DNA of 64,000 nt from an uncultured Planctomycetia bacterium (GTDB lineage: Bacteria; Omnitrophota; Gorgyraeia; Pluralincolimonadales; Pluralincolimonadaceae): contig CAZYUB010000007.1 in assembly GCA_964650515.1 (NCBI GenBank), forward strand, positions 20,837 to 84,836. Reading direction: 5' to 3'. Below the pieces are notes generated by a model. It saw nothing but the letters and a program-made list of their open reading frames with translations. It ran no database searches and was not told the DNA's origin. The position numbers were made by a program, and so were the translations under genes. Positions 19,220 to 40,177 of the stretch are shown piece after piece (positions within the stretch are counted from its first letter, which is position 1; each line of letters starts with the position of its first letter).

Positions 19220-20106
19220 ATCCCGACGAGAGCAGCCAGTCGTACGCGGCGGGCGTATCGTTCTGGGGCTCTATAACCCTTTTCGCCGTCTCGGCGGCGG
19301 CGGGCCTAGCGGTCGATTCCGTGACGCTCCTGCTGGATGCCTCGACAAGTTTGGTCATACTGGTCGTCGCGTTCATGATGAACTCGACGATAAAAAAGAT
19401 ACACAGCCCGCCGGATGAGATATTCAACTTCGGTTACGAGAAATACGAGCCATTTACGGTGGTCCTGCAGGGCGGCCTGATAATCGCCACATGCCTGGTA
19501 AGCATCAAGTTCGCGGTGCAGGACATCATCCACTTCGACGACATAAAGAATTACCAGATACCCCTGATCGCGTCCGGCATATCGGTGGTGGTGGGGACGT
19601 TCATAGCCGTATTCATAGGGATCACCGCGAAAAGGACCCGCTCCTCGATGATGCATGCCGCGAGCATGCACTGGTTCATAAACACCGGGATGTCGGTAGG
19701 CATGTTAGGCGGTTTCTACCTGGGCTCTATCCTTAAGCGGAGGGGTTATACCGAAATAACCCCGTTCATCGACCCCGCGATGGCGATAATGCTGGCGCTG
19801 GTCTTTATACTGCCGCCTTTGAAGGCCATGAGGAAGAACCTGTTTGAGCTCCTCGACGCGGTCCCGTCCAGGGAGATAAGGGACAGGGTAAGGAAGGTGG
19901 TCGACGAATACAAGCCGAAGATGTTCGGCGTCCACAGGGTCAGGACGAGGAAGGCGGGGGAGAAGGTGTTCGTGGAAGTGTGCTTCATAGTGAAGGAGAA
20001 CATGACCCTGAAGGAAGCCGAGGCGATCGCCGCGGACTTCGAAAGGGACTTAAAGACCCACCTGCACCACATCGACGTGGTAGTCTACTTCAAACCTACA
20101 AAATAG
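19216..20106 (+). CDS. Cation diffusion facilitator family transporter
   Basis: 6 TM segments plus a C-terminal cytoplasmic domain; CzcD/FieF-like. Confidence 0.75.
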
Positions 20107-20119
20107 CAAAAATTCACCC

Positions 20120-20177
20120 TTGACGGGGCATGCCTTAGGTGGTATACAATAGGTATGCATTGGTGTATACAGGTATA
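20120..20177 (+). promoter_or_regulatory. TTGACG-17-TATACA promoter followed by four 11-bp-phased GGTATA repeats (site A)
   Basis: GGTATA-like cores at 20141, 20152, 20162/5 and 20172. Same architecture as 23440 and 24332. Confidence 0.55.
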
Positions 20178-22620
20178 TAACAGGAACAGGCGCGGCGCAG
20201 CCCTGATCATGACGGTGGGGGTGCTCAGCATGCTCGTGCTCATAGGCGTCTCGTTCGCCGCTACTACGCAGGCCATATACAGGGAGGCAAGGAATTACTC
20301 CAATTCCGTGAAGGCGAGATACCTCGCCGAAGCGGGGATAGCGAGGGCGATAGCCGAACTCCGCTGCGGCGCGGAAGGCGCGGTATCGGACGCGGTAGAT
20401 ACGCAGGCGGAGGGCTGGTATGCCGGATATTCCGCCGTTCTCGGCGGCGGCAGGTACCAGGTGAGCGGCACGGATTGCGCGGCCAGGATATATATAAACG
20501 ATACCAACCCGAACCTCAGCGCCATGCTTGAAAACCTCACGGCGGCACTCATATCCATGGACGAGCCGCTTTCAGCCGGGGACGGCGCCGCGATAGTATC
20601 GAACCGGCCGGCCGAAGGTTATATGAGCGAGCAGGAGGTGGAAGAGCCGTTCAGGCCTTACGTTACCGTAAGGGCGTTCCGGGATACGGCCGTCTATTCG
20701 AACGCTTCGCCTTTTCCGGCAGTCCCGAGGGCGCCCGTAAACGTCAATACCGCTTCCAAGCCGGTACTTAAAGCCGTCCTGTCCGGAATAGAAGCGCTGC
20801 ATATGTGCCCGAGGTGCGGAGGCGACGGGACGATATTCGCCGCAAGCGCGTGCCCGGATTGCGGGGGGACCGGCGGCCTAAGGATCACCTCTGCGGAGGC
20901 GGATGGGCTCGCGGACTACATAATTGCGAACCGCCCGTATTCGACATGGGGCCAATTCTATAACTCGATAAAATCCTGCGCAAGTATAGGAGCGCAGGAC
21001 GCGGACCTCGTGATGGCGAACGCGAACCCGAACGCGGGATTCGCGCCCGGGGCGCGCAATTACGGCTGGGCAAGCGGCGCGGGGCGTATCGGCAAAGATA
21101 TCGACCCGGCGGACAGCGGACGCGGCCTTACAACTCACACGACGGAATTCTGTTTCAATTCGGGGGGATATTACGATATCGTCTCGACCGGGACGGTAGA
21201 GGCAGGCGCGGGGACGGTCGTGGCTTCAAGGAGCATAAGGTCTGTCGTGAAGATATTCGATATCTGGAGGCAGACAACGCAGTCGGAATTCCAGGCGGGC
21301 GCCATGAGCGGCCTGCAGAGCTATCCGGAGCCGATAGGCGCGGGCATAGCGCCGGCGGCGTTCGACGGGCAGCTGATGCTCGCGACGAACGAGGACCCGT
21401 CCACCGCCAATACGCTGCTGAGGGCAAGCTTCAACGACGGGCTCGACCTCGATTCGGCGGCGAACGCGAATATCGTCAGGGATCCGGCGAGCACCTGCTC
21501 CGTGGGGAGCGTGGCCGACGCGTCGGACCCGGGCAGCTTACTGCCGGACGGCGTCTTCGTCAACAAAAAGTCCAACGATTACATATCGTTCATGGAGAAC
21601 TGGAGCGGCACCTATAACATGGCGAAGGCGGACATGGGGACGCTTTCGCTCTGGGTCAAAGCCGTATCCGGCGGAGAGGTGTATTCGGGGATGAGCTTCT
21701 CCGGTTACGAGATAGACACGTACGGCAACGGGCATACTGACGGCGGCCCGCCGTGGGATTTTTCGCTCTTCGAGATACACCCGAGCGGCTTCATTCCCGG
21801 CTCTCCGTTCGGCGACTGGAACTGGTGGAGGCCGGGTTACGCGAACAGGACGGAGGTATGGTTCTACGAACAGTGGGACGCCGCCCTGCCCGAGAGGCCT
21901 ATCGGATTTATCGGGTTCCAGGAGGTCGGAAGCGGCATCGGCGGTGGCAACGTCTCGCAGATAATGAGCACAGGCCGCGCGAGGAAGAACTGGGCGCCGG
22001 GCACATGGCACCATGTCGTCTTCACGTATGAATTGAGCAATCCCGCCGACCCGAACTGCATGACGGGGACTAAGAAGATATACATAGACGGCGCCGAGCC
22101 CCCGCATTACGCCTATGACACGATATACCACCGGCTTAACGGCGATGTCCGCGACATTACCCTCGGCACGTCGGACATCAATAACAGCCATTCAGACGGC
22201 ACCTATATAATAGACGAGTTCAGGTCGGAGCACGCCTGCGCGACGGCCGCGCAGGTCATGGCGGAATTCGCGTCCGGCAGATATTACGATAACAGCGACG
22301 CGGAATTCACGTCGTCAGCGTTCGACGCTGGAGAAGCGCGCATCGGCACGGTATCGTGGACTGAACACATGCCCGCGAGTGTCGCCGGAGGCGATATACG
22401 ATTCGATATAGACAACGGCTCGGGATGGCTCGGCGGGTATGCCGCGCGCAACGACCCAGCGGGATCCCCCGTGGACGCGATGACCACCGGGACGAACCTT
22501 ATAAGGTATAAGGCGTATTTCGTGAATTCGGGTACGGGGCTTACCGATACGCCGGTCCTCGATGACGTGACCGTCACTTATTTGAGAAGGGCGGAAATAC
22601 TTTACTCAAGGGAGGAATGA
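20155..22620 (+). CDS. PilX/GspK-like N-terminus (RRGAALIMTVGVLSMLVLIGVSFA) fused to a large secreted domain with a Cys4 knot and a C-terminal LamG/ConA-like lectin domain
   Basis: Minor-pseudopilin-like N-terminus; CPRCGGDG..CPDCGG; WHHVVFTY..KKIYIDG LamG signature; C-terminal RYKAYF..TPVLDDVTVTY module shared with the giant ORF at 59871. Start uncertain (ATG 20155 lies inside the repeats; alternative ATG 20209). Confidence 0.6.
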   Translation: MHWCIQVYNRNRRGAALIMTVGVLSMLVLIGVSFAATTQAIYREARNYSNSVKARYLAEAGIARAIAELRCGAEGAVSDAVDTQAEGWYAGYSAVLGGGRYQVSGTDCAARIYINDTNPNLSAMLENLTAALISMDEPLSAGDGAAIVSNRPAEGYMSEQEVEEPFRPYVTVRAFRDTAVYSNASPFPAVPRAPVNVNTASKPVLKAVLSGIEALHMCPRCGGDGTIFAASACPDCGGTGGLRITSAEADGLADYIIANRPYSTWGQFYNSIKSCASIGAQDADLVMANANPNAGFAPGARNYGWASGAGRIGKDIDPADSGRGLTTHTTEFCFNSGGYYDIVSTGTVEAGAGTVVASRSIRSVVKIFDIWRQTTQSEFQAGAMSGLQSYPEPIGAGIAPAAFDGQLMLATNEDPSTANTLLRASFNDGLDLDSAANANIVRDPASTCSVGSVADASDPGSLLPDGVFVNKKSNDYISFMENWSGTYNMAKADMGTLSLWVKAVSGGEVYSGMSFSGYEIDTYGNGHTDGGPPWDFSLFEIHPSGFIPGSPFGDWNWWRPGYANRTEVWFYEQWDAALPERPIGFIGFQEVGSGIGGGNVSQIMSTGRARKNWAPGTWHHVVFTYELSNPADPNCMTGTKKIYIDGAEPPHYAYDTIYHRLNGDVRDITLGTSDINNSHSDGTYIIDEFRSEHACATAAQVMAEFASGRYYDNSDAEFTSSAFDAGEARIGTVSWTEHMPASVAGGDIRFDIDNGSGWLGGYAARNDPAGSPVDAMTTGTNLIRYKAYFVNSGTGLTDTPVLDDVTVTYLRRAEILYSREE

Positions 22621-22623
22621 CAG

Positions 22624-23469
22624 ATGAGATACTGGATGATATCGATTGCGCTGGCGCTCATGATCGTGAATACGGTATCGGCGGAGACGGGATCGGCCGT
22701 CGAGGGCTATAGCCCCGCGGTTCCGCTGCCTTCAAAAATGCCCGCGGAAGCCGGGATAAAGATATCGAAAGCCGCGATAGATTTTTCCGGCGGTGAATAC
22801 CGCGTAAAAGTCAGCGGCAGCACCGGCCTTCCCGACAAGGCGAGGATATACGTCTTCCTGAAGAAGGGGGAGTTTCCGCTGGACTGCAAGATCGCGCGCG
22901 CGGAAGGAGGCAGGTTCTCGGTAGAGCTCGGGCCGTTCCGGGTAAAACTGCCGATAGGCATATATAATGTGGAGGCGTCGCTGACGGCGGCGAGAGCATC
23001 CGGCGCGAAAGACATATACCGTCTCGTGGCCGGTAACCCCGAAGACGCGGTAAAAGAGGAAGAGTCCAGCAGGGCCGCGGTCTCGGCAAGCCTGGCTTCT
23101 GTCAGCGCGCTGTATGATGAGCTAGAGCAGAAGCGCGCGCAATACAAGGACAGTTTCGACCCGGCTGAATGGAGGAGATGGTCGGAAGGGTGGACTGCCC
23201 GCCTCAGGAACGAACAGCAGGCGGTCGATAACAACATAAAACCGCTGTTGGCCGGCGATTATTCGGGCCCCGGCCAGGCGCTTTCGCAGCTGATAAGGGA
23301 CCTTGACCAGCTCGGAAGGGTGTATTCGTCCGAACTGGACGGTGGCGGTATCAAGGATGCCTACCCTTATGCCTTCAGGGACCCCGCGCAGCTCAGGGCG
23401 GTCATCAACGAAGGCCTTAAAAATAGCAAAAAAGTCGTATTGACAAACTGTGGCCTAAATGGTATATGA
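22624..23469 (+). CDS. Secreted hypothetical protein
   Basis: Signal peptide; no recognisable motifs; 3 nt after the PilX-like gene. Confidence 0.5.
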   Translation: MRYWMISIALALMIVNTVSAETGSAVEGYSPAVPLPSKMPAEAGIKISKAAIDFSGGEYRVKVSGSTGLPDKARIYVFLKKGEFPLDCKIARAEGGRFSVELGPFRVKLPIGIYNVEASLTAARASGAKDIYRLVAGNPEDAVKEEESSRAAVSASLASVSALYDELEQKRAQYKDSFDPAEWRRWSEGWTARLRNEQQAVDNNIKPLLAGDYSGPGQALSQLIRDLDQLGRVYSSELDGGGIKDAYPYAFRDPAQLRAVINEGLKNSKKVVLTNCGLNGI

Positions 23470-23505
23470 ATGGTATACTAATGGTATTAATTGGTATAGT
23501 ATAAT
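23440..23505 (+). promoter_or_regulatory. TTGACA-17-TATATG promoter with four GGTATA repeats at 11/11/10-bp spacing plus TATAAT (site B)
   Basis: GGTATA at 23461, 23472, 23483 and 23493; TATAAT at 23500-23505. Confidence 0.55.
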
Positions 23506-23520
23506 CCCACACGAAAGGAG

Positions 23521-24276
23521 GTGAAAAGATTGAAATATCTGATCGCATTGTTGGCATGCATGTTCATATTCGCGGCTTCTCCCGAGGCCCACGCAGTCCT
23601 GAATTGGGCGGGAGAGGACACCGACGCGCCTTCAAACGCGTTGAACTGGAGCTACGGGTTCTCGCAGGGAGGCGACACGGTAGAGCTGGTCACGACGCTG
23701 GACGGCAACTGCGCGCCTTCGGTAACCACCGAAGCGCATTCGGGCGCCGAATCGGTCAAGTTCCACTGGACCCACACGAAGGACACGGTCAACTGGGGAA
23801 CAAGGACAGCCTTGCAGGTTGGAAGCGACGGCAACGGCGGAGACAGCCTAGGCACCTCGATGATGTTCCACGATATCTCAACGGCGAACAACCTGACCTT
23901 CTGGGTCAAGGGCGCGGTTGGCGGGGAACAGTTCAGGGTCGCCCTGAACAGCGGCTGGGAAGGATCGGCGTATCCGACCGACCAGACGAACCAGCTGCTC
24001 GTGAGCGGAGTAACAAGCTCATGGCAGCAGGTAGTGATGCCCCTGTCGGGATTCACGTATGATTTCCAGTATTCGGAGAATCCCGGCCCGATCGACCTGG
24101 CCCATTTGACGGGCGTCAGGTTTGTCATAGAGTCGGGCGAGCCGACCGGCGAAGGGACGGTGTATATCGATGACATCTCGTTCGATACGCAGACGGTCCC
24201 GGAACCCGCGAGCCTTCTTTTACTCGGCTCCGGCTTGAGCGGCATGTTGGTCTTTGTAAGGAAGCGTAAAGCATAA
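23521..24276 (+). CDS. PEP-CTERM-anchored secreted protein with a carbohydrate-binding-module-like beta-sandwich domain
   Basis: C-terminal VPEPASLLLLGSGLSGMLVFVRKRKA (PEP motif, TM segment and basic tail). FWVKGAVGGEQFRVAL motif shared with 5 other proteins in the window. Start may be TTG 23530. Confidence 0.75.
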   Translation: MKRLKYLIALLACMFIFAASPEAHAVLNWAGEDTDAPSNALNWSYGFSQGGDTVELVTTLDGNCAPSVTTEAHSGAESVKFHWTHTKDTVNWGTRTALQVGSDGNGGDSLGTSMMFHDISTANNLTFWVKGAVGGEQFRVALNSGWEGSAYPTDQTNQLLVSGVTSSWQQVVMPLSGFTYDFQYSENPGPIDLAHLTGVRFVIESGEPTGEGTVYIDDISFDTQTVPEPASLLLLGSGLSGMLVFVRKRKA

Positions 24277-24331
24277 GCTCTCGTCCCCCAACGAGAAGGA
24301 TCCGTCCGTCTCCCGAATCCTTTACGGCAGC

Positions 24332-24377
24332 TTGACAAATTCCCGCTATGTGGTATACATAAGGTATGGGTGGTATA
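24332..24377 (+). promoter_or_regulatory. TTGACA-16-TATACA promoter with three GGTATA repeats (site C)
   Basis: GGTATA at 24352, 24363 and 24372, upstream of the regulator gene. Confidence 0.5.
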
Positions 24378-24419
24378 TACCAATCCTAACCGAATATTGT
24401 ATCTAAGAGGAGGCGGGAG

Positions 24420-25529
24420 ATGGACGGTAAGTTTGACAAGAAGAGGCCGATGCTCTTTTACCAGCAGTTCGCGGATATGATCAGGGACCAGATCAACAGG
24501 AACCGGTATAAACCGGGCGAATACATCCCTTCCGAAAGGCAACTGAGCAAGGATTTCAAGCTCAACAGGATGACAGTGAGGAAGGGCATCGCGATGCTGG
24601 TGGAGGAAGGCCTGCTGCAGCCGTTCAGGGGGCGCGGGACTTTCGTTACGGGTTATCCCCAGCCCGGGAAGAAGACCCGGTCCAGGGATATCGGCTACGT
24701 CTTCATAAAGGATTTCAATTTTCCGCTTTCGAAGAATCCTTATTACACGGAGATCCTTGAAGGGGCGGAAGCCGAAGCTTCAAAACTGGATTATAAGTTC
24801 TTTCTAATGTCAGTAGATTACGATGAGAGCAAGCTAAGGGAGCTCGCGTCGCGCATAATCAGCGATAAGATAGGCGGGGCGGTCTTCGTAGGAAGGCTCG
24901 ACGAGAAGGTCGAGGAGATAATAACCTCCCTCGCGAAACGCAAGATACCCGTCGTCGTCATAGACAGGTACGTGCCCTATAACGGCGTCAGCGCGGTGCT
25001 GACCGACAATGCGAAGGGCGCGTATGACGCCGTGCAATACCTGGCTTCGCTCGGCCACCGGGACATAGGGTTCATTACGGGGCCGAAGTCGAACCAGGCG
25101 GTGCAGGAGAGGATCGGCGGATTCGAGAAGGCCGCCGGGGAACTCAAGCTCAAGGTGAAGGCGGAGCACACGGCCGAGAGCGACCTGCATATACACGGCG
25201 GATACCTCGCGATGAAGAAGATACTCGGGGCGCGCAAGTTCCCCACGGCGGTCTTCGCGATAAACGACGAGGCGGCGATAGGCGCGATGCGCGCGATACA
25301 CGAGAAGGGGTTGAAAATCCCGAAGGACATATCGCTCGTAGGGTTCGACGACATCGAATGGGCTTCGCACACGATGCCCGGGCTTACTACCATCAAGATC
25401 TACAAAAAAGAGATCGGCGCCGCTGCCGTGAAGAAACTCACGGAGCAGATCGAGGATAAGGCCGCTCTACCGGTCAAGAACGTGATGCCGGTAAAGCTTG
25501 TCCTCAGGGAGAGCGCCTCTCATGCCTAA
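24420..25529 (+). CDS. AraR-like transcriptional regulator (GntR-type winged HTH + LacI/GalR-type sugar-binding domain)
   Basis: PSERQLSKDFKLNRMTVRKGIAMLVEEGLL HTH, then a periplasmic-binding-protein-like fold. Confidence 0.8.
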   Translation: MDGKFDKKRPMLFYQQFADMIRDQINRNRYKPGEYIPSERQLSKDFKLNRMTVRKGIAMLVEEGLLQPFRGRGTFVTGYPQPGKKTRSRDIGYVFIKDFNFPLSKNPYYTEILEGAEAEASKLDYKFFLMSVDYDESKLRELASRIISDKIGGAVFVGRLDEKVEEIITSLAKRKIPVVVIDRYVPYNGVSAVLTDNAKGAYDAVQYLASLGHRDIGFITGPKSNQAVQERIGGFEKAAGELKLKVKAEHTAESDLHIHGGYLAMKKILGARKFPTAVFAINDEAAIGAMRAIHEKGLKIPKDISLVGFDDIEWASHTMPGLTTIKIYKKEIGAAAVKKLTEQIEDKAALPVKNVMPVKLVLRESASHA

Positions 25530-25547: not shown

Positions 25548-27905
25548 ATGGGTAGTAAGCTGGATAAGTACGGTTATTTCGATAACGATAAGAAAGAATT
25601 CGTCATCGCGAGGCCCGACACGCCTCTTCCGTGGATCAATTACCTCGGCTGCGAGCAGTATTGCGGCCTCATGTCGAACACCGCGGGCGGCTACAGCTTC
25701 TGGATAGACCCGCTCGAGAACAGGATACTGCGTTACAGGTATAATAATATCCCTTCCGACAGGGGCGGCAGGTACATCTACCTGAGGGACAACAAGTCCC
25801 GCGATTTCTGGTCCGCCTCGTGGCAGCCCGTCCTTAAAAGCCCCGATAAATACAAATACGAGTGCCGCCACGGCCTCGGGTATACCGTCATATCATCGGA
25901 ATATTCCGGCATAAAGACGAAGACATCATATTTCGTCCCTCTCGGGGAGAACCTCGAGATATGGATGATGGAGGTCGAGAACGCCTCGAAGAAAGACAGA
26001 GACCTTGACGTCATTTCTTTCGTGGAGTTCTGCCTGCCGAACGCGCTCGAGGACATGACGAACTTCCAGGCGAACCTTAACACCGGCGAGACCGACTACG
26101 AGGACGGCACCGTCTACAACATCAGCAAACACCGCGTTACTAAGGCGCATTTCTCGTTCTTTACCGTCGCCAACCGGAAGGTCAATAGCTTCGACAGCAA
26201 GCGCGACGACTTCCTCGGGCCTTACGCCGACCTCAGCGCGCCGCGCGCCGTCGTGGAGGGCAAGGGCAAGAACGGCATCAGCTGCGGCTGGTCGCCGGTC
26301 GGGTCGCACAATATAGGCATGAAACTGAAGAAGGGCGAGTCGAAGACGGTGATATTCATCCTCGGCATCGCGCATTCGAGGAAAGAGGTCGACGGCTACA
26401 GGAAAAAATATTCCAACAGGGCCAAGGTCCTCGACGCATTGAAAAACCTCAACGGGCACTGGGAGGAGAACCTCGACAAATTCAAGGTCGAGACTCCGGA
26501 CGGCGACCTTGACCTGATGGCTAACATCTGGAACCAGTACCAGTGCCGCTCGACGTTCAACTGGTCGCGCTCGGCCTCATACTATGAATCCGGCATCGGC
26601 CGCGGCATGGGTTTCCGCGACTCGAACCAGGACACGCTCGGTTTCGTGCATATGGTCCCGGAGAAGGTGAAGCAGAGGATAATCGACCTCGCCTCCACGC
26701 AGTTCGAGGAGGGCGACGCGCACCACCAGTATTCCCCGCTCACGAAGAAGGGAAGGGAGCGCGGATATTCCGACGACCACCTCTGGCTCATATATTCCGT
26801 CGCGGAATATATCAAGGAGACGGGCGATACGAATTTCCTCTTAGAGAAGATCCCTTACAACAACGAAAAGACAGGCACACTGCTCGAGCATCTCGAAAGG
26901 GCGATAGATTATTCGGTCAAGAACACCGGGCCGCACGGCCTGCCGCTCTCCGGGTTCGCCGATTGGAACGACTGCCTTAACCTGCGCGGGCCTAACAACA
27001 AGGGCGAGTCGGTCTTAGTCGCGCAGATGCTCGTGCTGGCCGCGAAGGAGATGGCCGGCCTGCTGAGGTTCGTGAAGGAGCCGAACAAGGCGGCGCGTTT
27101 CGACGAGATAGCGGAGCGCATGACGGAGAGGATAAACGAGGTCGCCTGGGACGGCGCGTGGTATGTCAGGGCTTATGACGACAACTCGAACGTGGTCGGC
27201 TCAAAAAAGAACAAGGAAGGCAGGATATTCCTTGAGTCGCAGGGATGGGCGGTCATGTCGGGCGTGGCGCCGAAAGACAGGGCGATAAAGACGCTCGATT
27301 CGGTCGAAGAGCACCTCGCCACCGAGCACGGCGTCATCCTCCAGCAGCCGGCTTACAACGATTACCACAAGAGCCTGGGCGATGTCTCGTCATACCCGCC
27401 GGGGCTCAAGGAGAACGCCGGCATATTCTGCCATCCGAACCCGTGGGTCATGATAGCTGAATGCATAGCCGGGCGCGGCGACAGGGCGCTTTGGTATTAC
27501 AAGGCGATACTGCCGCCGTCGAAGGACCCGGATGTCCGCAGGGTCGAGCCGTATATCTATTGCCAGATGGTCGCCGGAAGGGACCATCCCGATTTCGGCG
27601 AGGGCAAGAACTCGTGGCTTACCGGGACTTCGGCGTGGAATTTCGTCGCGGTCTCGAAGTATATAATCGGGATAAGGCCGGATTACGACGGGCTTGTCGT
27701 CGACCCCTGCATACCGGAAAAATGGGCGGGGTTCAGGGCGGCGAGGAAGTTCCGCAACGCCGTCTACGACATCTCGGTGGATAATCCCGGGCATGTCAGC
27801 AAGGGCGTATCTTCGGTAAAGGTGGACGGGAAGTTCATAGAGGGGAACAAACTGCCCGTATTCAACGACGGCAAGAAACATTCCGTCGAGATAACTATGG
27901 GCTAA
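25548..27905 (+). CDS. GH94 cellobiose/cellodextrin phosphorylase
   Basis: Length (785 aa) and GH94-like motifs throughout; no signal peptide, so cytoplasmic. Confidence 0.85.
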   Translation: MGSKLDKYGYFDNDKKEFVIARPDTPLPWINYLGCEQYCGLMSNTAGGYSFWIDPLENRILRYRYNNIPSDRGGRYIYLRDNKSRDFWSASWQPVLKSPDKYKYECRHGLGYTVISSEYSGIKTKTSYFVPLGENLEIWMMEVENASKKDRDLDVISFVEFCLPNALEDMTNFQANLNTGETDYEDGTVYNISKHRVTKAHFSFFTVANRKVNSFDSKRDDFLGPYADLSAPRAVVEGKGKNGISCGWSPVGSHNIGMKLKKGESKTVIFILGIAHSRKEVDGYRKKYSNRAKVLDALKNLNGHWEENLDKFKVETPDGDLDLMANIWNQYQCRSTFNWSRSASYYESGIGRGMGFRDSNQDTLGFVHMVPEKVKQRIIDLASTQFEEGDAHHQYSPLTKKGRERGYSDDHLWLIYSVAEYIKETGDTNFLLEKIPYNNEKTGTLLEHLERAIDYSVKNTGPHGLPLSGFADWNDCLNLRGPNNKGESVLVAQMLVLAAKEMAGLLRFVKEPNKAARFDEIAERMTERINEVAWDGAWYVRAYDDNSNVVGSKKNKEGRIFLESQGWAVMSGVAPKDRAIKTLDSVEEHLATEHGVILQQPAYNDYHKSLGDVSSYPPGLKENAGIFCHPNPWVMIAECIAGRGDRALWYYKAILPPSKDPDVRRVEPYIYCQMVAGRDHPDFGEGKNSWLTGTSAWNFVAVSKYIIGIRPDYDGLVVDPCIPEKWAGFRAARKFRNAVYDISVDNPGHVSKGVSSVKVDGKFIEGNKLPVFNDGKKHSVEITMG

Positions 27906-27908
27906 CGC

Positions 27909-29033
27909 ATGAAGGAGACACAGATGAAGAAAGCGATGATCCTGGCAATGATGCTGGCGGTGCCGCAGTTGTGCATGGCCGCCGAATACGGGACCGTGTT
28001 CAAGGAGAATATGGGCAAGTACACATACGCATACCCGTCCACGAGCACGATCGAGATAGCCGAGCAGGGCGCGAAGGCCGGAAGGTCCTGCCTCCTGTTT
28101 GTCCTCGACCATAAGGAATACTCGGGCGGCGCGTTCGCGTTCAGCGATCCGATTGACGTTTCCCCGATAAAGGATACCGGCTCGCTCGAGTTCTGGATAA
28201 AGGGCGGCAACGGCGGGGAGAGGCTTGAGGTCGCGCTCGTGAACGAGCAGGCCGACGGTAAAAAAGCCGAAAGCTTTTTAAGCTTAAATTCCGTAAGCAG
28301 CGTCGACAACCGGTGGAAGAAGGTAGAGATACCGCTGAAGCTCTTCCCAAAGAACGGCATCTACTGGGACGCGGATAAGGGCAAGGAGCTCCCGCTCGCG
28401 TTCGACTGGAAGAACGTGACGGAATTCAAGGTCCGGACGAGGCCTACGCAGGGCCAGGATGACATAAAACTCTATTTCGACGATATCGTCTTCACGAAAG
28501 ACGCGGCTCCGGGCGTCAACGCGCTTGTCGTGTTCGACGGGGCGTTCCCGTCCTATACGTACGCGTATCCGGAGAGCGGAAGCAGGATAACCGTATCGGC
28601 CGGTGACGTGTTCGAGGGCAAGCCCTCGGCGAAGATATCGCTTAACGCGAAGGACTATTCGGGCGCCGCGTTCGCTTTCGGGCCCGTTGACCTCAGCGGA
28701 ATGCGCGAAGCGGGAGTCCTCGAGTTCATGATGAAGAGCGGCGCGGGCGGCGAGAAGGTGGAGATATGCCTCGTGCAGGCGGCAGAGCCGAAAGTAGAGA
28801 CCGGCGTGAGCCTGAGCGGCATAAAACCCCTGACTGCCGAATGGCAGAAATACGAGATACCGCTTAGCATGTTCCAGGACAGGGGCAAGTACTGGGACGA
28901 GGTCTCCAAGAAAGAGGTCGGCGCTGACGTGAAGAACTGGGACAAGATCGGCGAGCTCAAGTTCAAGATAAGGAAGGACGAGAACAAAGAATGCTCCCTA
29001 TACATAACGGACGTAAAGTTCAGATTGCAGTAA
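27909..29033 (+). CDS. Secreted protein with two tandem carbohydrate-binding-module-like beta-sandwich domains
   Basis: Signal peptide; internal duplication (EFWIKGGNGGERLEVALV and EFMMKSGAGGEKVEICLV). Confidence 0.6.
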   Translation: MKETQMKKAMILAMMLAVPQLCMAAEYGTVFKENMGKYTYAYPSTSTIEIAEQGAKAGRSCLLFVLDHKEYSGGAFAFSDPIDVSPIKDTGSLEFWIKGGNGGERLEVALVNEQADGKKAESFLSLNSVSSVDNRWKKVEIPLKLFPKNGIYWDADKGKELPLAFDWKNVTEFKVRTRPTQGQDDIKLYFDDIVFTKDAAPGVNALVVFDGAFPSYTYAYPESGSRITVSAGDVFEGKPSAKISLNAKDYSGAAFAFGPVDLSGMREAGVLEFMMKSGAGGEKVEICLVQAAEPKVETGVSLSGIKPLTAEWQKYEIPLSMFQDRGKYWDEVSKKEVGADVKNWDKIGELKFKIRKDENKECSLYITDVKFRLQ

Positions 29034-31288
29034 TTGCGGCGGCGGTATTGCTCTGTTCATGCGCGAAGAAACCCGAAGTCGAATTCAAATTGCGGGTTTT
29101 CGACGGTGATATGGCCGGCTGCAGGGAATATTGGGGCGACTCCTGGATAGGAAGCGGAAGCGGAAGCCGCGTCGACCGGGCCGACGACAAGATAAAACTG
29201 GCCGACCTTGGAAAAGAAGGGCCTGTCCCTGAGGGGCTTGCGCTCGATTTTTCCGGGGAGAACGTTAAGGGCGGCTGGTGGTCCGCTTGTCTGGCCCGGC
29301 CAATGTGGCAGGTGATGTCGCTCGATAATTACAGGGACAAGGGATGCCTCGAGATGTGCGTAAAGGGCGCCTCCGGAGGGGAGGAGTTCATCATAGGGCT
29401 TGCAGACAAGAGCAAGCTTAAGAGGGAGGCAATGCTGCCTTCCTCAAGGTTCTTCGCGGTCACTACGCAATGGCAGCGCGTAAGGATACCCCTGTCGGAA
29501 TTTGCCGCTGTAAAGCAAAGCCTCGATTTCGACAGGATATCGCACATCATAATCAGGAACGGGAACAAGCCGGGGAAATTCGCCTTTTATATAAAGGACG
29601 CGGCTTTCCGTTCGGAGCTCGTCGAGAAGTCCTATCCGCTCATCAAGGTGGACCAGGCGGGATACGCGCCTGCGGAAAAGAAGGTAGCCAAGGTATCCGG
29701 TATCGGGATAAAGGGCTACGGCGGCAGCGAATTCCATTTGATCGACGAGGATACAGGCAAGGAGGCCTTCTCCGGCAGGTTGAAGTACGTCTCGGGGCGC
29801 GATAGAGCGACGGGCGACGCGGTGTTCGACGCGGATTTTACCGCGTTCGACAGGCCCGGAAGGTACAGGGTGCGTATAGTGAGAATAGAGCACGATAGCC
29901 CCGTTTTTTGCGTCTCGGATTCCGCTTATGATACCGTGCTGCGCGATTCATTGAGGATGTATTTTTACCAGAGGTGCGGGACGGCCCTCGAGGCCGGATG
30001 CGCCGGCAAATGGACGCACGCTTCATGCCATAACGATGATGCGTACCTGTTCTCCGACGAGTCGAAAAAGATCGAGGCGACGGGCGGCTGGCATGACGCA
30101 GGTGATTACGGGAAATATGTGGTCAACGGCGGCATCGCCGCGGGAACGTTGCTGGCGATATACGAGCTCCGTCCGGGGAACTTTTCAGACGGCCAGCTCG
30201 GTATACCCGAGAGCGGGAACTCCGTCCCCGATATTCTCGACGAGGCGAGGCGGGAGGTCGAGTGGTTCCTGAAGATGCAGAGGGAAGACGGCGCGGCCTG
30301 CCATAAGCTGGCCGGGGAATATGCCCCCGTCGACAGGTCTCCGGACCGGGACCAGGTAAAAAGGTTCATAATGGACATATCGACCCCTGCAACCGCGAAC
30401 CTGGCCGCTGTCGCCGCGATAGCCTCGCGGACCTACGGCAAGCATGACCCGGTTTTCTCGAAGAGATGCCTGGATGCGGCGGAAAGGGCGTGGGCGTACC
30501 TGGAGTCCCACCCTTCGAATTATCCGCCGAGGGGCTACTCCGATCCTGTTTTGGATAAGGGCGAAATTGACGGAGGCGATTACGGCGACGACCCGCAGGG
30601 AAAATGGACTCAGGGCGACAGGGACGAAAGGTTCTGGGCCGCCTGCGAACTTTTCCGCGCTACGGGAAAAGGCGTATACCATGATTACATAAAAGCGAAT
30701 TACGGGATATTCAAGGCCGGCCACGCGATGAACTGGCAACAGGTGCAGAACCTGGGCCTCTATTCATATTGCATGTCCGCGCCAGCCGATACTTCGCTGA
30801 AGAAGGAGATAATGGAGTCCCTCGGCAAGTACGGCAAGGGAATATTGAAGGCCTCCCGCGCCAACGCTTATAGCAACGCAAACCGCGAATATGAATATTA
30901 CTGGGGCTCGAACACAGTCGCGCTGAATTACGGCGTCGACCTGATATACCTGTACGAGATGACCGGAGACCGCAGGTACAGGGACGCCGCGCTCGACCAG
31001 CTGCACTATATACTCGGCAGGAACGTCTTCGGGCTGTCGATGGTAAGCGGCATCGGAGAGAAAAGTATAGAAAAATATTATCACACATGGTTTAATAATA
31101 GCGATTACGACACATTGCCCCCGGGATTCATGGTCGGGGGGCCGAATGCCGATAATTTCAGGGTATCGCGGTATCCGGGGCGCTGCTACAAGAACGTCGG
31201 CTCCGACTTCACCGTCGACGAGATAGCGGTAAATTACAATGCGCCGCTGGTCTTCGTATCGGGTTATTTCAAGGAGGATAAGAGATGA
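28991..31288 (+). CDS. GH9 endoglucanase lipoprotein (carbohydrate-binding-module-like domain, CelD-type Ig-like domain, GH9 catalytic domain)
   Basis: ATGGWHDAGDYGKYVVNG and DEIAVNYNAPLVFV GH9 signatures; VDQAGYAPAEKKVAKV Ig-like N-terminal domain; LLCSC lipobox-like sequence. Confidence 0.85.
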   Translation: MLPIHNGRKVQIAVIAAAVLLCSCAKKPEVEFKLRVFDGDMAGCREYWGDSWIGSGSGSRVDRADDKIKLADLGKEGPVPEGLALDFSGENVKGGWWSACLARPMWQVMSLDNYRDKGCLEMCVKGASGGEEFIIGLADKSKLKREAMLPSSRFFAVTTQWQRVRIPLSEFAAVKQSLDFDRISHIIIRNGNKPGKFAFYIKDAAFRSELVEKSYPLIKVDQAGYAPAEKKVAKVSGIGIKGYGGSEFHLIDEDTGKEAFSGRLKYVSGRDRATGDAVFDADFTAFDRPGRYRVRIVRIEHDSPVFCVSDSAYDTVLRDSLRMYFYQRCGTALEAGCAGKWTHASCHNDDAYLFSDESKKIEATGGWHDAGDYGKYVVNGGIAAGTLLAIYELRPGNFSDGQLGIPESGNSVPDILDEARREVEWFLKMQREDGAACHKLAGEYAPVDRSPDRDQVKRFIMDISTPATANLAAVAAIASRTYGKHDPVFSKRCLDAAERAWAYLESHPSNYPPRGYSDPVLDKGEIDGGDYGDDPQGKWTQGDRDERFWAACELFRATGKGVYHDYIKANYGIFKAGHAMNWQQVQNLGLYSYCMSAPADTSLKKEIMESLGKYGKGILKASRANAYSNANREYEYYWGSNTVALNYGVDLIYLYEMTGDRRYRDAALDQLHYILGRNVFGLSMVSGIGEKSIEKYYHTWFNNSDYDTLPPGFMVGGPNADNFRVSRYPGRCYKNVGSDFTVDEIAVNYNAPLVFVSGYFKEDKR

Positions 31289-31881
31289 AAAAGGTTTTTT
31301 TGGCAGCCCTGATGATGCTGCAGGCAGCGGCCCTGTGCGCGGCGGTAGTTTACGGGATCTTCTCCGAGGAGATAGAGAAGGAAGGTACCTACCACTATTC
31401 CTACCCGACGGACGGTACGAGCGAGATAAGGACCACGAACATAGAGAAACATTCGGGGAATTATTCGATGAAGGTCACGCTTAACCCTTCCGGGTTTTCG
31501 GGCGCGGCTATAGGCAATTACCCGCCGATGGACCTGTCGAAATGCCGTGAGACTGGCGCGCTGGAATTCTGGATAAAAGGTGAGAACGGCGGCGAGAAGT
31601 GCGAGATACTCCTTCTCGACGACTCGAATAACGACGGCAACAAGACGGAAGTCGGGGTGGCAATAACGCCGAAATATGTGGCGATAACAAAGGACTGGCA
31701 GAAGGTCAGCGTCCCGCTGAAGGCGTTCCCGAACGACGGGCAGTACTGGGACGGCGAGAAGAACGTCAAGAATGCCGTCAATTGGAGCGAGATCGTGGAG
31801 TTCAAGGTCGCGAGCCGCCCCTATGACAAGAACGCCGGGTTCACGGTCTATATAGACGACGTGAACATAGTGATGCCATGA
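31285..31881 (+). CDS. Secreted single carbohydrate-binding-module-like domain protein
   Basis: Signal peptide; EFWIKGENGGEKCEILLL motif. Confidence 0.6.
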   Translation: MKKVFLAALMMLQAAALCAAVVYGIFSEEIEKEGTYHYSYPTDGTSEIRTTNIEKHSGNYSMKVTLNPSGFSGAAIGNYPPMDLSKCRETGALEFWIKGENGGEKCEILLLDDSNNDGNKTEVGVAITPKYVAITKDWQKVSVPLKAFPNDGQYWDGEKNVKNAVNWSEIVEFKVASRPYDKNAGFTVYIDDVNIVMP

Positions 31882-34760
31882 TAAAAAACATAAGATCGTT
31901 CCTCGCGATGGCCGTATGCGGCGCCTTCATTCTGCCGAACTCCGGGAGCTGGTATACGAAGGACGATTCGCCGGATAAGGGCGCCTCCGTGATAAGCTTT
32001 AGGGTCGACGAGAAAGCGGACGCAACAGGCGGCGACGGCTCGATATCGTTCGAATATTCCCTGGGTAAAGGTTTCCAGTGGCCGTATGTCCAGTTATTGT
32101 GCCCGCTTTCGCAGGATGGTGCCGCGGGCACCAAGGACCTCAGCGCGTATTCCGGCGTGTCGCTCTGGATCAAGACCGAAGGAAAGACGCAGGTGAGGAT
32201 CGTCATATTCACCTGCGAAGACGGCGTTACCGACATAAATAACAGCGGCACCTACAGGCACAACGAAGTATCGATAAAGACATCCGACAGGTTCGTCCAT
32301 TACAAGATACCTTTCGAGCAGTTCAAGACGCCGCAGTGGTGGTTGAGCCAGCATACCGGTGCCAAGAAACAGCCCGACTGGAGCAAGTCGATAGAATTCG
32401 CGGTAATGGAAGACGACAGCCTCTCTGCCGGCGCGGGTGAGAAGGGGTGGATAGACGGGATAACTTTTTACAGGGGCCCGCTCGAGATAAAGGCCGCGTC
32501 GCCCGCGGACAGGGAATCCGGGGTGAAAGCGGACGCGCCGGTAAAGATATCGTTCAGTTTTCCCGTGACGACCGAAGAACTCCAAAAAAATTTCCGGCTC
32601 ATAAAGACGGACCAGGGCGGAAAACCCGTCGAATGCGCCGTAACCGTGTCCGCTGACGGGCGGGAAGCGGTGTTTACTCCCTCGAAACCGCTCGATGCCA
32701 AGAGCCGTTATCTTTATAAGATATACAAGAGACTCGTGAACTTCACGACGGAATACGGTATCGGGAATATCTACGGTCGCGTGACCGGCGAGGATGGAAA
32801 GCCCGTCGCCGACGCGTCGGTAAGGACATATCCCGACGATAAGAGGACGAGGACCGACAAGGACGGCAGGTACTATTTCGAGGGAGTGAACCTCGACAGG
32901 ATATACCTCTACTGCGTGAAAGACGGCTATTATACGGGATTCGGAGTGTTGCCGCTCGTGCCGAAGGAGGATTTCTATGTCGATTTCAGGCTTTCGGAAA
33001 CCCCGAGACGGGACGGGAAAGTCCAGCCGTTCCTGTTCGGCGTGAATTTCAACGACTGGGAGACCGAAGGGTACCTTCTACCGGTAAAGGACAAGGTCAA
33101 GGCCGCGGGTTTCACGATAATGAGGTGGGGCGGCATCGGCAAGGACCTTATCGAGGTCGACGAGGCGAAGATAGACGAGTTCATCTCATACGCGAAAGCG
33201 GTAAGGGCTGAACCCGTCGTGCAGGTCAGGCTCATTAAAGGCAGTATCGAAGAGGCGGTCAAGGCGGTCAAATACTGCAATATCGCCAAGCGCTACAAGG
33301 TGAAATACTGGATAATCGGCAACGAGCCCGACTGGTATAACGAGAAGCAGTGGGGGCCTTACGGCGCGGAGGATTACTGCAGGGATTACCGCGCGTATTA
33401 CAACGCTATGAAGGCGGTGGACCCCTCGATAAAGATAATGGGCCCCGAGCTGACCGCGAAATACTATCTCGCCGCGCCGGACAACTGGATAGAGCCGTTC
33501 CTCAGGGAATGCGGCGATATAATAGATATCATATCGATACACCTCTACCCGTACAGCGGCAAGCAGCCGCCCCAGCAGACGCTTATGGGCCTCGGCAATT
33601 ACAGGCGCGTGATAGACAGCATCAGGCAGAAGGCGCGGGAGATCTCCGGGCGCGAGATACCCATTGCGGTCACCGAGTATAACCTGACATGGGACTGGCT
33701 CGCCGAGGGCGACGGCGCGAACAATTCGTTTTACGCGGGCCTCTACCTCGCCGACTTCCTCGGCGCAATGGCGGAGAAACAGGTGTTCATCGCGAACTTC
33801 TGGGACATCATGGAGAAGGGCACGATCGGGTTCCTCGAGCATGAGACGTTCAAGCCGTACCCGACCTATTACACGTTCATGATGTACAAGAATTTCCGCG
33901 GCGAGCTCATAGATACCGTGACGGACAAAAAAGAGCTGAAGGTCTACGGCGCGAAGGACAAAAGCGGCAATGTGGTATTGATGGTCATCAACAAGAGCGG
34001 CAGCAGGCAGGTCGAGGCGGAACTCGCCCCGGGGGCCCTGAAGAAAATACAGGACAGGTATTATTCCTTCCCGCCGTATTCGCTTACTTGCCTGAAGATC
34101 GGCTCCGGCGGCAGGTGCTCCGACGCGTGGCAGTATTCGAAGGAGCTATACGATAAAGGCGAAGGCATGCTGTCGGGCAGGGAGCTTGTAAAGAAGACCG
34201 TGCTGAAAGAGCTTGCCCCTGCGGCCGCGCAGGCCGGGCCCGGGGCAGGCAAAGGCCTGATGGATGATTTCGAAAGCAGGGACTTCGTATCACCGATGGG
34301 CGGCGCATGGATACCGGAAGACGACTCGGTAAACGGCGGCGATTCGACGGCGAAGATATCGCTTGCCGAAGGCAACGGCAGCGCCTCGGGCCTGAAGTTC
34401 GAATATACGCTTGGCGGGAAATTCAACAACAGGTATTCCATATGCGCGGCGGTATTCGACGGCCCCGTTGACCTTTCGAAGCACAGGAAAATGGTATTCT
34501 GGGCCAAAGGGTCGGCAAAGCCCTTCAAGATAAAGGTCTGCTCCGCCTCCGTAGGCGATTATGACTACCATGGCACCGCAATAACTCCCTCCGAAGATTG
34601 GAAAGAATATTCCGTTGACCTGCCCTCCCTCAAGCAGGAGGGTTGGGGCAGGAAAACAGATATTGACCTCACGCAGGTAAACAAGATACAATTTGAATCA
34701 GGCACGAAGACCGCCGGTGACGAAGGTTTCATTGTCGTTGACGATATCCGTTTCGAATAA
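31878..34760 (+). CDS. Multidomain secreted glycoside hydrolase: CBM-like domain, Ig-like domain, CarboxypepD_reg-like domain, clan GH-A TIM-barrel catalytic domain, C-terminal CBM-like domain
   Basis: GRVTGEDGKPVADASV..DKDGRYYF; YWIIGNEPDW (acid/base) and IAVTEYNL (nucleophile). Family not resolvable by eye (GH5/30/44-like). Confidence 0.65.
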   Translation: MIKNIRSFLAMAVCGAFILPNSGSWYTKDDSPDKGASVISFRVDEKADATGGDGSISFEYSLGKGFQWPYVQLLCPLSQDGAAGTKDLSAYSGVSLWIKTEGKTQVRIVIFTCEDGVTDINNSGTYRHNEVSIKTSDRFVHYKIPFEQFKTPQWWLSQHTGAKKQPDWSKSIEFAVMEDDSLSAGAGEKGWIDGITFYRGPLEIKAASPADRESGVKADAPVKISFSFPVTTEELQKNFRLIKTDQGGKPVECAVTVSADGREAVFTPSKPLDAKSRYLYKIYKRLVNFTTEYGIGNIYGRVTGEDGKPVADASVRTYPDDKRTRTDKDGRYYFEGVNLDRIYLYCVKDGYYTGFGVLPLVPKEDFYVDFRLSETPRRDGKVQPFLFGVNFNDWETEGYLLPVKDKVKAAGFTIMRWGGIGKDLIEVDEAKIDEFISYAKAVRAEPVVQVRLIKGSIEEAVKAVKYCNIAKRYKVKYWIIGNEPDWYNEKQWGPYGAEDYCRDYRAYYNAMKAVDPSIKIMGPELTAKYYLAAPDNWIEPFLRECGDIIDIISIHLYPYSGKQPPQQTLMGLGNYRRVIDSIRQKAREISGREIPIAVTEYNLTWDWLAEGDGANNSFYAGLYLADFLGAMAEKQVFIANFWDIMEKGTIGFLEHETFKPYPTYYTFMMYKNFRGELIDTVTDKKELKVYGAKDKSGNVVLMVINKSGSRQVEAELAPGALKKIQDRYYSFPPYSLTCLKIGSGGRCSDAWQYSKELYDKGEGMLSGRELVKKTVLKELAPAAAQAGPGAGKGLMDDFESRDFVSPMGGAWIPEDDSVNGGDSTAKISLAEGNGSASGLKFEYTLGGKFNNRYSICAAVFDGPVDLSKHRKMVFWAKGSAKPFKIKVCSASVGDYDYHGTAITPSEDWKEYSVDLPSLKQEGWGRKTDIDLTQVNKIQFESGTKTAGDEGFIVVDDIRFE

Positions 34761-34789
34761 CGGAACTTTCCAGGTCGAAAACTGTCTAA

Positions 34790-35332
34790 ATGGGTGAAGA
34801 GAGCATAAATTTCGATGAACTGGTCCTTGAGCATAAGGACAAGGTCTTCAATTTGTGCTACCGTTTCCTCGGCAATTACGAGGAAGCCGACGATTGCGCG
34901 CAGGAGACCTTCGTAAAGGTATACCGCTCTTTGAAGGGCTTCAGGCGGGAGTCGTCCGTCTCGACGTGGATCTACAGGATAGCGGTAAACACCTGCAAGA
35001 ACAGGATCGCTTCGGCGCAATACCGCCGCAGCAGGATAATGGTCCGGCTCGATGAGCCGAAGGAGACCGACGACGGCGCACGGCCCATTGAGATAGGCGA
35101 CGGGAAACTTTCCCCGGCGGCGGAAGCCGGCAGGAGGCAGATGGGCGAGTTGATACAGGAAGCGATAGATTCCCTGCCGCGCGACCAGAAGTCGGTGGTG
35201 ATATTGCGCGATGTGGAGGGGCTTTCATACGAAGATGTCGCCGCGGCCACGGGCCTGAATATCGGGACGGTGAAATCGAAGCTCGCGAGGGCCAGGCAGG
35301 AGTTGAGGGAAAAATTGAAGGGGCTGGTGTAA
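34790..35332 (+). CDS. ECF (sigma-24 type) RNA polymerase sigma factor
   Basis: Region 2 (FNLCYRFLGNYEEADDCAQETFVKVYR) and region 4 HTH (DQKSVVILRDVEGLSYEDVAAATGL). Confidence 0.9.
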   Translation: MGEESINFDELVLEHKDKVFNLCYRFLGNYEEADDCAQETFVKVYRSLKGFRRESSVSTWIYRIAVNTCKNRIASAQYRRSRIMVRLDEPKETDDGARPIEIGDGKLSPAAEAGRRQMGELIQEAIDSLPRDQKSVVILRDVEGLSYEDVAAATGLNIGTVKSKLARARQELREKLKGLV

Positions 35333-36115
35333 ATGGATAACAAAGACAAGAGGGAGATGCTGCCGGAGGACGAATACCTGAAGCAGATGAGTTCCCTGCC
35401 GAAGGTGAAGGCCCCGGATGATTTCCTGCAGAAGGTGCGCGCGCGCATAGAGAGGCGCCCGCTCCGCGAAAGGATAATCGACGCCCTTTTCGTCCCGTTC
35501 AGGATAAAGATACCGCTCGAGGTCGCGGCCGTAACAGCGACGCTCTTGCTCGTTATGTCCAGCCTCGACGTTGTCAAGCCGTCGAAGCAGCTCGCGTCCG
35601 TGCCGAAGTCCGACGTCGAGGAAGCGGTCGTCGGCAAGGCGGAAGCCGGGGGAGCCTCCCAGGATGAAAAAGATGCTTTCAAATACCAGGTATATGTAAA
35701 TAAGCCGAAAGAGGAAGAAAAAGCTGTTACTGAAACGCCCGTGACGACAGAGGGCCTCAAAATGAAGAAGGCGGAATATAAAGAGAGCCGGCTGTGCGAG
35801 AAAGAGGTCGATGCAGTATGCGCGGATGCGGCTGCGCCCGCACTCAGGTCATCAAAAGGATTTTTACGGGCGGATACGCTTCCGGCGATAAAAGGATATA
35901 TAGAATCGTCGCAGGGCGTCATAACCCACATCGAGACCGACAAGAATACCGGAAAGGCGCTGTATATTGACGCCGAGATACCCGCCGCGAACTATGAATC
36001 GTTCAAGAAGAAGCTGGAAGATCCCGCCATATCCCGCAATATAAAGATTGAGCCCATCCTGAAGGATTCCCCGCAGGGAAGCAATATAATCCAAATCCGC
36101 ATTTTTATGATATAA
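35333..36115 (+). CDS. Putative anti-sigma factor (single-pass membrane protein)
   Basis: Immediately downstream of the ECF sigma with a TAAATG overlap; one TM segment (VAAVTATLLLVMSSL). Confidence 0.55.
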   Translation: MDNKDKREMLPEDEYLKQMSSLPKVKAPDDFLQKVRARIERRPLRERIIDALFVPFRIKIPLEVAAVTATLLLVMSSLDVVKPSKQLASVPKSDVEEAVVGKAEAGGASQDEKDAFKYQVYVNKPKEEEKAVTETPVTTEGLKMKKAEYKESRLCEKEVDAVCADAAAPALRSSKGFLRADTLPAIKGYIESSQGVITHIETDKNTGKALYIDAEIPAANYESFKKKLEDPAISRNIKIEPILKDSPQGSNIIQIRIFMI

Positions 36116-36135
36116 TCTAGAAAACGGAGGTCTGC

Positions 36136-40176: not shown

Positions 40177-40177
40177 A

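Follow-up and report, generated by a model that had tools for sequence, protein, structure and literature searches.

Phased GGTAT arrays at three Omnitrophota promoters as probable operators of an adjacent GntR/sugar-binding regulator

Three promoters in a 64,000-nucleotide stretch of DNA from an uncultured bacterium placed by GTDB in the phylum Omnitrophota (GenBank assembly GCA_964650515.1, contig CAZYUB010000007.1, positions 20,837 to 84,836; this whole stretch is referred to below as the window) carry, from their −10 regions onwards, three or four copies of a GGTAT-type word about one helical turn apart. The question raised by this locus is what reads these arrays. An initial annotation of the same DNA had proposed a direct-repeat-binding protein, for example an OmpR/PhoB-type response regulator, or else a series of −10-like sigma pause elements. 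From a comparative sequence analysis, we consider it probable that the arrays are the autoregulated operators of a repressor encoded next to the third of them (24420-25529), a GntR-type winged-helix protein with a LacI-type sugar-binding domain, which would occlude the −10 and the start of three cellulose/cellodextrin operons. The coordinates of the features are collected in Table 1.

Table 1. Array promoters and surrounding genes, in window positions
Feature	Position	Strand	Details
A-rich UP-like element AAAATAGCAAAAA, promoter 1	20100..20112	+	7 nt 5′ of the promoter 1 −35; kept in orthologous loci
Promoter 1 −35, TTGACG	20120..20125	+	17 nt to TATACA (20143-20148); TGG before TATACA
Array 1, four units TGGTATA, AGGTATG, TGGTGTA, AGGTATA	20140..20177	+	Direct reading and core scan; cores at 20141, 20152 (GGTATG), 20162 (GGTGTA) and 20172 (GGTATA), spacing 11, 10, 10; first core TGGTATAC at 20140-20147
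First gene, T2SSK-like (minor pseudopilin-like) protein with LamG-type domain	20155..22620	+	Pfam T2SSK and Laminin_G_3, both weak
281-aa protein without family match, co-transcribed with first gene	22624..23469	+	Syntenic in all orthologous loci
A-rich UP-like element AAAATAGCAAAAAA, promoter 2	23420..23433	+	
Promoter 2 −35, TTGACA	23440..23445	+	17 nt to TATATG (23463-23468); TGG before TATATG
Array 2, four units TGGTATA, TGGTATA, TGGTATT, TGGTATA	23460..23498	+	Direct reading and core scan; cores at 23461, 23472, 23483 (GGTATT) and 23493, spacing 11, 11, 10
Second regulated gene, secreted CBM11/CBM30-like carbohydrate-binding protein with PEP-CTERM anchor	23531..24276	+	Pfam
Promoter 3 −35, TTGACA	24332..24337	+	16 nt to TATACA (24354-24359); TGG before TATACA
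Array 3, three units TGGTATA, AGGTATG, TGGTATA	24351..24382	+	Direct reading and core scan; cores at 24352, 24363 (GGTATG) and 24372, spacing 11, 9
GntR winged-helix and LacI-type sugar-domain regulator, proposed array binder	24420..25529	+	Pfam
Packed genes downstream of the regulator	25548..41554	+	List of open reading frames and Pfam

The array sites were read directly from the sequence at all three promoters. A scan of both strands of the window for chains of at least three GGT(A/G)T cores at 9-12 bp returned only 20141-20176, 23461-23497 and 24352-24376, and no other pairs or chains of GGTAT or GGTRT at this spacing occur in the 64 kb, which upholds the earlier statement that the window holds no further tandem array. 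Against the three chains observed, 200 first-order Markov simulations gave a mean of 0.005 and a maximum of one. The arrays are non-random and helically phased and, as had been suggested, they fit a protein that binds direct repeats. The repeated word had been given as GGTATA; cores phased at 9-11 bp are indeed present at all three promoters, but the exact hexamer is found in only 7 of the 11 units, the invariant part being GGT(A/G)T. The hexamer GGTATA itself is found 62 times in the window versus 24 expected. One cluster of it, at 60359-61020 and by a narrower count at 60800-61020, was considered as a fourth array and ruled out, being coding sequence for a repeated YKMWY motif. The open reading frame (ORF) in question is very long (approximately 59873-64000), runs past the window end, contains repeated (D/S)x(Y)KMWY(x)GY motifs as well as LamG-like sequence, and explains the local excess of GGTATA.

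Each array begins in the −10 region of a TTGAC(A/G) promoter, with a −35 hexamer matching the consensus at five or six of six positions, a spacer of 16-17 bp and TGG present at all three promoters. These promoters had been described as TTGAC(A/G)-N16/17-TGGTATA, which is right about the near-consensus −35 but not about the spacing: the 16 or 17 nucleotides run to the TATA hexamer, and TGGTATA starts 13-14 nt after the −35. We assigned the −10 from the fixed distance to the −35 and from the orthologs, of which the AT-rich ones have TATAGT or TATATT at this position, and relative to the putative start site the arrays span from about −15 to about +30. The first unit of array 1 serves also as the extended −10, and a TATAAT at 23500-23505, downstream of array 2, is not conserved. 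Single TGGTATAAT elements are present upstream of 16626 and of bioY, as the initial annotation had it, and no repeats of this kind accompany a fourth promoter, TTGACA-N14-TGGTAAAAT at 5972. TTGACA...TGGTA is therefore the generic strong-promoter form of this organism, and the repeats downstream of it are the special feature.

By its homologs, the organism belongs to Candidatus Omnitrophota. Conservation was examined in orthologous loci of this phylum obtained by exact-protein look-ups, with regulator identities of 56-91%. Four lineages whose regulators are 88-100% identical carry arrays at the same three places, and across these lineages 0 of 55 core columns are variable versus 12 of 49 spacer columns (Fisher p = 5e-5). 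Array 1 combines invariant cores with variable spacers across L001, L004 and L005, and the three cores of array 3 are identical in the same three loci; the −35 position of promoter 1 is kept in L001, L002, L004 and L007, and array 2 is kept in L001, L004, L005, L007 and L009. Three further loci (L007, L009, and L011) are AT-rich, with regulators 56-61% identical and intergenic sequence that has otherwise diverged, and yet the CBM gene and the regulator gene there have arrays of three to four GGTAT cores in front of them; in L011 additional arrays stand before a CBM30 gene and a GH94 gene. The latter locus also has a type IV pilin-like (N_methyl) gene with two GGTAT units upstream. When the motif is compiled over 42 units from five lineages, the two G and both T of the core are invariant and its A is present in 40 of 42, the preceding base is T (31) or A (11), the following base is A in 34, and the rest is AT-rich and unconserved. 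Across lineages the units are spaced by 11 bp in 12 cases, 10 bp in 10, 9 bp in 6, and 12 bp in 2. Because they are conserved across the orthologous loci, the arrays tie the three transcription units into one regulon, and the earlier suggestion that the three genes are regulated together is borne out.

The regulator gene adjoins arrays in every orthologous locus, and 79 control loci from other phyla, 908 kb in total, contain no array. The control loci are LacI-like loci from a scan of a genome collection with the regulator alignment, whose patterns come from the LacI-type domain, and the same scan contained only one Omnitrophota contig, that of L002. A separation of the regulator from the surrounding enzymes is provided by locus L222, where a paralog (P0016, 42% identical) sits among unrelated genes (phosphoglucomutase, GGDEF). 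Directly upstream of the P0016 ATG lies TTGACA-N17-TATACT with three GGTAT cores at exactly 11 bp. Since L222 shares with the window only the regulator, the arrays are tied to the regulator and not to the carbohydrate-active enzyme genes. Where regulators are about 40% identical, the TGGTA half-site recurs at the corresponding place of the promoter but is laid out differently, as ACTGGTATAC-N2-CCAGTAT inverted repeats in L095 and L223, and as two TACCAG at 11 bp on the opposite strand in L093 and L097. The varied layouts fit double-stranded DNA operators of diverging paralogs, and not −10 elements or RNA motifs.

The regulator belongs to the GntR family by its match to PF00392 (66.3 bits versus a cut-off of 27, residues 14-76), while residues 102-365 match Peripla_BP_3 (125.6 bits), Peripla_BP_1 (117.7 bits), and Peripla_BP_4 (77.3 bits). 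This is the architecture of the AraR subfamily, which is defined by a GntR domain fused to a GalR/LacI-type, periplasmic-binding-protein-like effector domain (PMC4494728). The best solved matches of the C-terminal domain are the cores of LacI, PurR, and CcpA, and it is no nearer to AraR (3tb6, E = 4.5e-18) than to PurR or CcpA. Compared with solved structures, the winged helix is nearest to NagR/YvoA (E = 5e-14), followed by AraR (1e-9) and, more weakly, NanR (3e-5). Residues R40, R50, and G71 align with R38, R48, and G69 of NagR and are invariant in 31 homologs, so that the residues of the GntR-type recognition mode seen in NagR and FadR (arginines of alpha-2 and alpha-3, glycine of the wing) are present, their contacts with the arrays being predicted. 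In NagR, Arg38 and Arg48 recognize a pair of adjacent guanines, and the wing is held in place by Gly69 (PMC4333415); the invariant residues of the regulator would match the invariant GG of the array units. An ortholog of the arabinose repressor AraR is not indicated, as the neighboring genes encode GH94, GH9, CBM30, and GH3 proteins, and no AraR-type palindrome is found in the three promoters, where the candidate operators are the GGTAT direct repeats. The regulator is likewise not of the NanR type (FadR subfamily), with no FCD match and a LacI-type C-terminal domain. In L001, L004, L005, and L222, public gene calls stretch the regulator ORF into the upstream operator array (372-396 aa versus 369 aa), and the L222 call begins inside the array, so the regulator start codons are likely mis-annotated in these calls.

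Direct repeats are exceptional among GntR-family operators, and the exceptions carry closely similar words: TGGTATAW for NanR, TGGTATT for NagQ, and TGTATTAWTT for FarR (PMC4494728). Escherichia coli NanR, a member of the FadR subfamily that reads the "Nan box," resembles the present case in being, as is proposed here, a GntR-type winged-helix repressor whose promoter regions hold direct GGTATA repeats, two to three in number, and in having the same operator, with the same core word, at three operons of one sugar-utilization regulon. Three dimers of NanR associate cooperatively with the (GGTATA)3 operator, this operator is found in the promoters of three operons, a single repeat remains unbound, and longer spacers abolish binding (PMC8012715). 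We read the nanA operator of strain MG1655 as GGTATAacaGGTATAaaGGTATA (ctGGTATAacaGGTATAaaGGTATAtcg), with periods of 9 and 8. The three promoters in the window agree with the Nan box in their repeats, with three to four GGTAT(A) units each, but not in its spacing (spacers of 2-3 bp, period of 8-9 bp, less than half a turn between repeats), since the period here is 9-12 bp, mostly 10-11 bp, with the units on one helical face. Moreover, NanR has an all-helical FCD effector domain instead of a LacI-type sugar-binding domain, and a 32-residue N-terminal extension that is needed for cooperativity, whereas only about 13 residues precede the winged helix of the present regulator. Also unlike NanR, there are up to four units here, the first of which is also the −10.

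The half-site itself is shared with the dre sites of Bacillus subtilis NagR/YvoA and Streptomyces DasR, both of the HutC subfamily: the natural NagR operator ATTGGTATAGATCACTAG (PMC2853113) holds the same TGGTATAG, and dre-like palindromes are found here as TGGTATAGACCA in L001 and L004 and as TGGTATATACCA at 24371-24382. The NagR dimer, however, binds one imperfect palindrome, whereas most units here are direct repeats without a second half-site, and the NagR effector domain has the UTRA/chorismate-lyase fold instead of the LacI type. The palindrome TGGTATATACCA is an extension of the last unit of array 3; its second half (ACCA in L001 and L004) is lost in L005, L007, L009, and L011. A palindrome as the general architecture, with units of the form GTATAC or TGGT-N4-ACCA, was rejected, only this unit (3c) being fully palindromic.

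B. subtilis AraR has the same combination of a GntR winged helix with a LacI/GalR-type domain and is, as proposed here, an autoregulated glycan-utilization repressor whose operators surround the start site. The DNA-binding domains of AraR attach to DNA independently, as monomers, and their relative orientation is set by the spacing of the core motifs (PMC3592433), and flexibly tethered domains on direct repeats are therefore plausible. The AraR operators are unlike the arrays, being 16-bp pseudo-palindromes (e.g., AAAATTGTTCGTACAAATATT; ATTTGTACGTACAAAT type) in which one arginine reads a T/ANG core. For its cooperativity AraR relies on two distant in-phase operators with looping between them, again unlike here, and the context is arabinose rather than cellulose. 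NagQ (TGGTATT) and FarR/MngR (TGTATTAWTT) are HutC-subfamily sugar regulators with predicted or footprinted direct repeats of nearly the same word, and they belong to another subfamily and to other phyla than the present regulator. The arrays are a genuine and well-conserved regulatory feature, best grouped with the known GntR tandem-repeat operators similar to that of NanR; what would be new is the AraR-type regulator in an uncultivated phylum, the one-turn spacing and the first unit coinciding with the −10.

The sequences show the anatomy of the arrays, their conservation, and their linkage to this regulator clade. From these comparisons we infer a model of binding, stoichiometry, repression rather than activation, effector, and start sites. 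Each (T/A)GGTAT unit would be one winged-helix half-site, in which the two conserved arginines would read the GG. As the three to four half-sites are about one helical turn apart, they would come to lie on one face of the DNA from the extended −10 to about +30, and we therefore propose that several subunits or dimers of the repressor occupy them next to one another in a cooperative manner. The arrays lie on and downstream of the −10, which is the position of a repressor. When bound, it would cover the −10 and start site of three strong promoters, its own included, and so control the pseudopilin-like/LamG operon from array 1, the gene of the PEP-CTERM carbohydrate-binding protein from array 2, and the regulator's own long cellulase/cellobiose-phosphorylase operon from array 3. 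Release would be brought about by a beta-glucan-derived sugar, probably cellobiose or cellodextrin, on the C-terminal domain.

Several observations weigh against this model. GntR and AraR operators are typically inverted repeats for one dimer, and here a dimer joined through its LacI-type domains would have to be placed on three (an odd number) or four direct half-sites. The putative −10 hexamers (TATACA, TATATG, and TATACA) are without the T at position 6 (−7), which is why a consensus promoter scanner that asks for T at this position reports none of the three array promoters. The first unit is inseparable from an ordinary extended −10, because TGGTATAAT and TGGTAAAAT are found at unregulated promoters too. 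Array 1 overlaps the start of the ORF of the first gene, with the start ATG inside the second core (GGTATG), and if ATG 20155 is the true start, the conservation of this array could partly reflect coding. Finally, a metagenome-wide scan with the pattern TGGTATA-N3-5-GGTAT-N3-6-TGGTATA matched at least 120 loci, and among the matches listed, relatives of the window genes, or a GntR-type winged helix of any kind, are encoded at only one, on the contig of L004, the others being tandem repeats or matches by chance. At metagenome scale the word pattern by itself is thus unspecific, and the scan did not define the regulon.

The overlap between the half-site and the promoter word can also be taken further, in a version of the repressor model to which we give only a small chance. 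The half-site would then be the organism's own extended −10 word, and the regulator would polymerize on phased −10 mimics in base-for-base competition with sigma-70. Once induction has set in, sigma-dependent pausing or alternative starts would take place at the inner units, and the start codon of the first gene, embedded in GGTATG, would lead to a leaderless or near-leaderless mRNA. If this is true, a single DNA word serves repressor, sigma, and ribosome.

Turning to explanations that do without the adjacent repressor, the pause elements of the initial annotation belong to a broader one, in which the units are serial sigma-70 extended −10-like elements that form tandem promoters or promoter-proximal pauses. 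It draws on the fact that all units lie on the non-template strand in gene orientation, that TGGTATAAT is the apparent extended −10 of the organism, and that the inner units TGGTATACT (23471) and TGGTATAGT (23492) are better −10 matches than the first unit. We regard it as unlikely, for the invariant GGTAT fits −10 elements poorly: the G at the free TGn position is invariant in 42 of 42 units, whereas a T equivalent to T−7 is found in only 18 of 42, and one unit, GGTGT, is without A−11. The strict phasing of 9-12 bp has no known role in sigma pausing, and the inverted or opposite-strand half-sites that paralogous loci hold at the same place are impossible as −10 elements. The same paralogs, with their motif in DNA palindromes or in antisense, argue against GGUAU repeats acting in RNA, where a 5′ leader would bind a protein or fold and in this way control translation or stability. 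Units 2-4 are probably transcribed and all arrays of the orthologous group are in sense orientation, which speaks for an RNA element; yet no plausible start site lies as far upstream as the first unit, the units of array 1 would fall inside coding sequence, and no Rfam match was obtained for the leader, the Rfam search of the window giving only a tRNA. An RNA element is, in our judgment, very unlikely. Hardly credible is a functionless relic of promoter duplication within the locus, suggested by the AAAATAGCAAAAA element and layout that sites 1 and 2 share, since the cores are invariant while the spacers diverge, and the arrays persist where the remaining intergenic sequence cannot be aligned.

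A different direct-repeat-binding factor, activating or repressing, is the remaining alternative, and the candidate named in the initial annotation was the OmpR/PhoB-type response regulator encoded at 59117-59797. OmpR/PhoB proteins bind direct repeats head-to-tail with a period of 10-11 bp, that is, about one helical turn, as in the arrays. The encoded protein has Response_reg and Trans_reg_C domains, and its gene adjoins a secretin gene, which makes a control of surface structures plausible. OmpR/PhoB sites, however, usually lie at or upstream of the −35 and activate, whereas the units lie on and downstream of the −10 of promoters that need no activator, since their −35 matches the consensus and both a TG extension and an UP-like element are present. 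The recognition words of OmpR/PhoB boxes are unrelated to GGTAT, a half-site that matches the GntR-type operators of NagR and NanR. The response regulator gene is the only one of its type in the window and lies 35 kb from the arrays, sharing its operon with genes for a histidine kinase, a TPR protein, and the secretin; in the orthologous loci no such regulator is found up to 10 kb from the arrays. What accompanies the arrays is the adjacent GntR/sugar-binding regulator, and in L222 the same array stands before the gene of a paralog of this regulator, in surroundings that are otherwise unrelated. We therefore hold a different factor, such as the OmpR/PhoB candidate, to be quite unlikely. The ECF sigma factor encoded at 34790-35332 was also considered as a reader of the motif and dropped, the promoters being of the TTGACA/TGnTATA type, from which ECF promoters differ in form.

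If the repressor model holds, the locus offers a concrete and testable operator-regulator pair and a first regulon for the use of a polysaccharide (cellulose) in Omnitrophota, a phylum of which, to our knowledge, no cultured and genetically tractable member exists. The tandem half-site logic of NanR would, as far as sequence comparison can tell, extend to the AraR-type subfamily (GntR plus LacI domain) with a different geometry, and the result would be a compact switch that may be inducible by cellodextrin. Paralogs of one clade reuse TGGTA in direct, inverted, and opposite-strand form, which makes them a natural series for the diversification of operators that avoid cross-talk. There is a gain for annotation as well, as automated calls let the ORFs of the regulator and of the pseudopilin-like protein extend into the operators. 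No new principle of regulation is involved; the findings are moderately interesting, and their main value is a regulon that is ready to be tested.

ATG 20155 of the first gene is the sole in-frame start upstream of the RRGAAL pseudopilin-like N-terminus. This ATG follows the putative −10 by exactly 7 nt and has no Shine-Dalgarno sequence, which suggests a leaderless mRNA. In L007 (5340-5360) the called start, too, is an ATG within a GGTATG unit, and gene callers differ on the start of this gene in L001, L004, and L005. Promoter 2 has its UP-like element, its −35, and its first core within the 3′ end of the ORF at 22624-23469, which ends at a TGA within TGGTATATGA, so that this promoter is nested in the final part of a coding sequence. 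For the gene of the secreted carbohydrate-binding protein, a TTG start after AAAGGAGGTG was inferred from the ribosome-binding site and the signal peptide. The packed genes downstream of the regulator encode a GH94 phosphorylase, CBM30 proteins, a GH9 cellulase, a GH39-like protein, an ECF sigma factor, a GH3 beta-glucosidase, and others, and judging from the small intergenic gaps, which alone define its extent, they probably form one operon from promoter 3.

The gene order of L093, L095, L097, and L223 resembles that of the window at 20155-31288, with GH26 instead of GH94/GH9. The recurring order is a PEP-CTERM CBM protein, a T2SSK-like protein, a protein of about 280 aa, a GntR/sugar-binding regulator, CBM30 proteins, and a glycoside hydrolase, which suggests a modular Omnitrophota polysaccharide-utilization locus associated with pilin-like proteins.

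An A-rich element of the form (A)AAA(T)AGCAAAA(A) is found 7 nt upstream of TTGAC not only at promoters 1 and 2 (20100-20112 and 23420-23433) but also at 515-534 on the minus strand, and it recurs at promoters of the distant paralogous loci L093, L097, and L223. GCAAAA-N6-11-TTGAC occurs three times in the window versus 0.07 expected, and the element probably serves strong promoters as an UP element. Between bioY and the cluster of AAA_22, secretin, histidine kinase, and response regulator genes lies an IS200-like Y1 transposase gene (52689-53273). Within a coding region of the downstream operon, a GntR-type palindrome, TGGTAAATACCA, is present at 36221-36232, with about one such match expected by chance.

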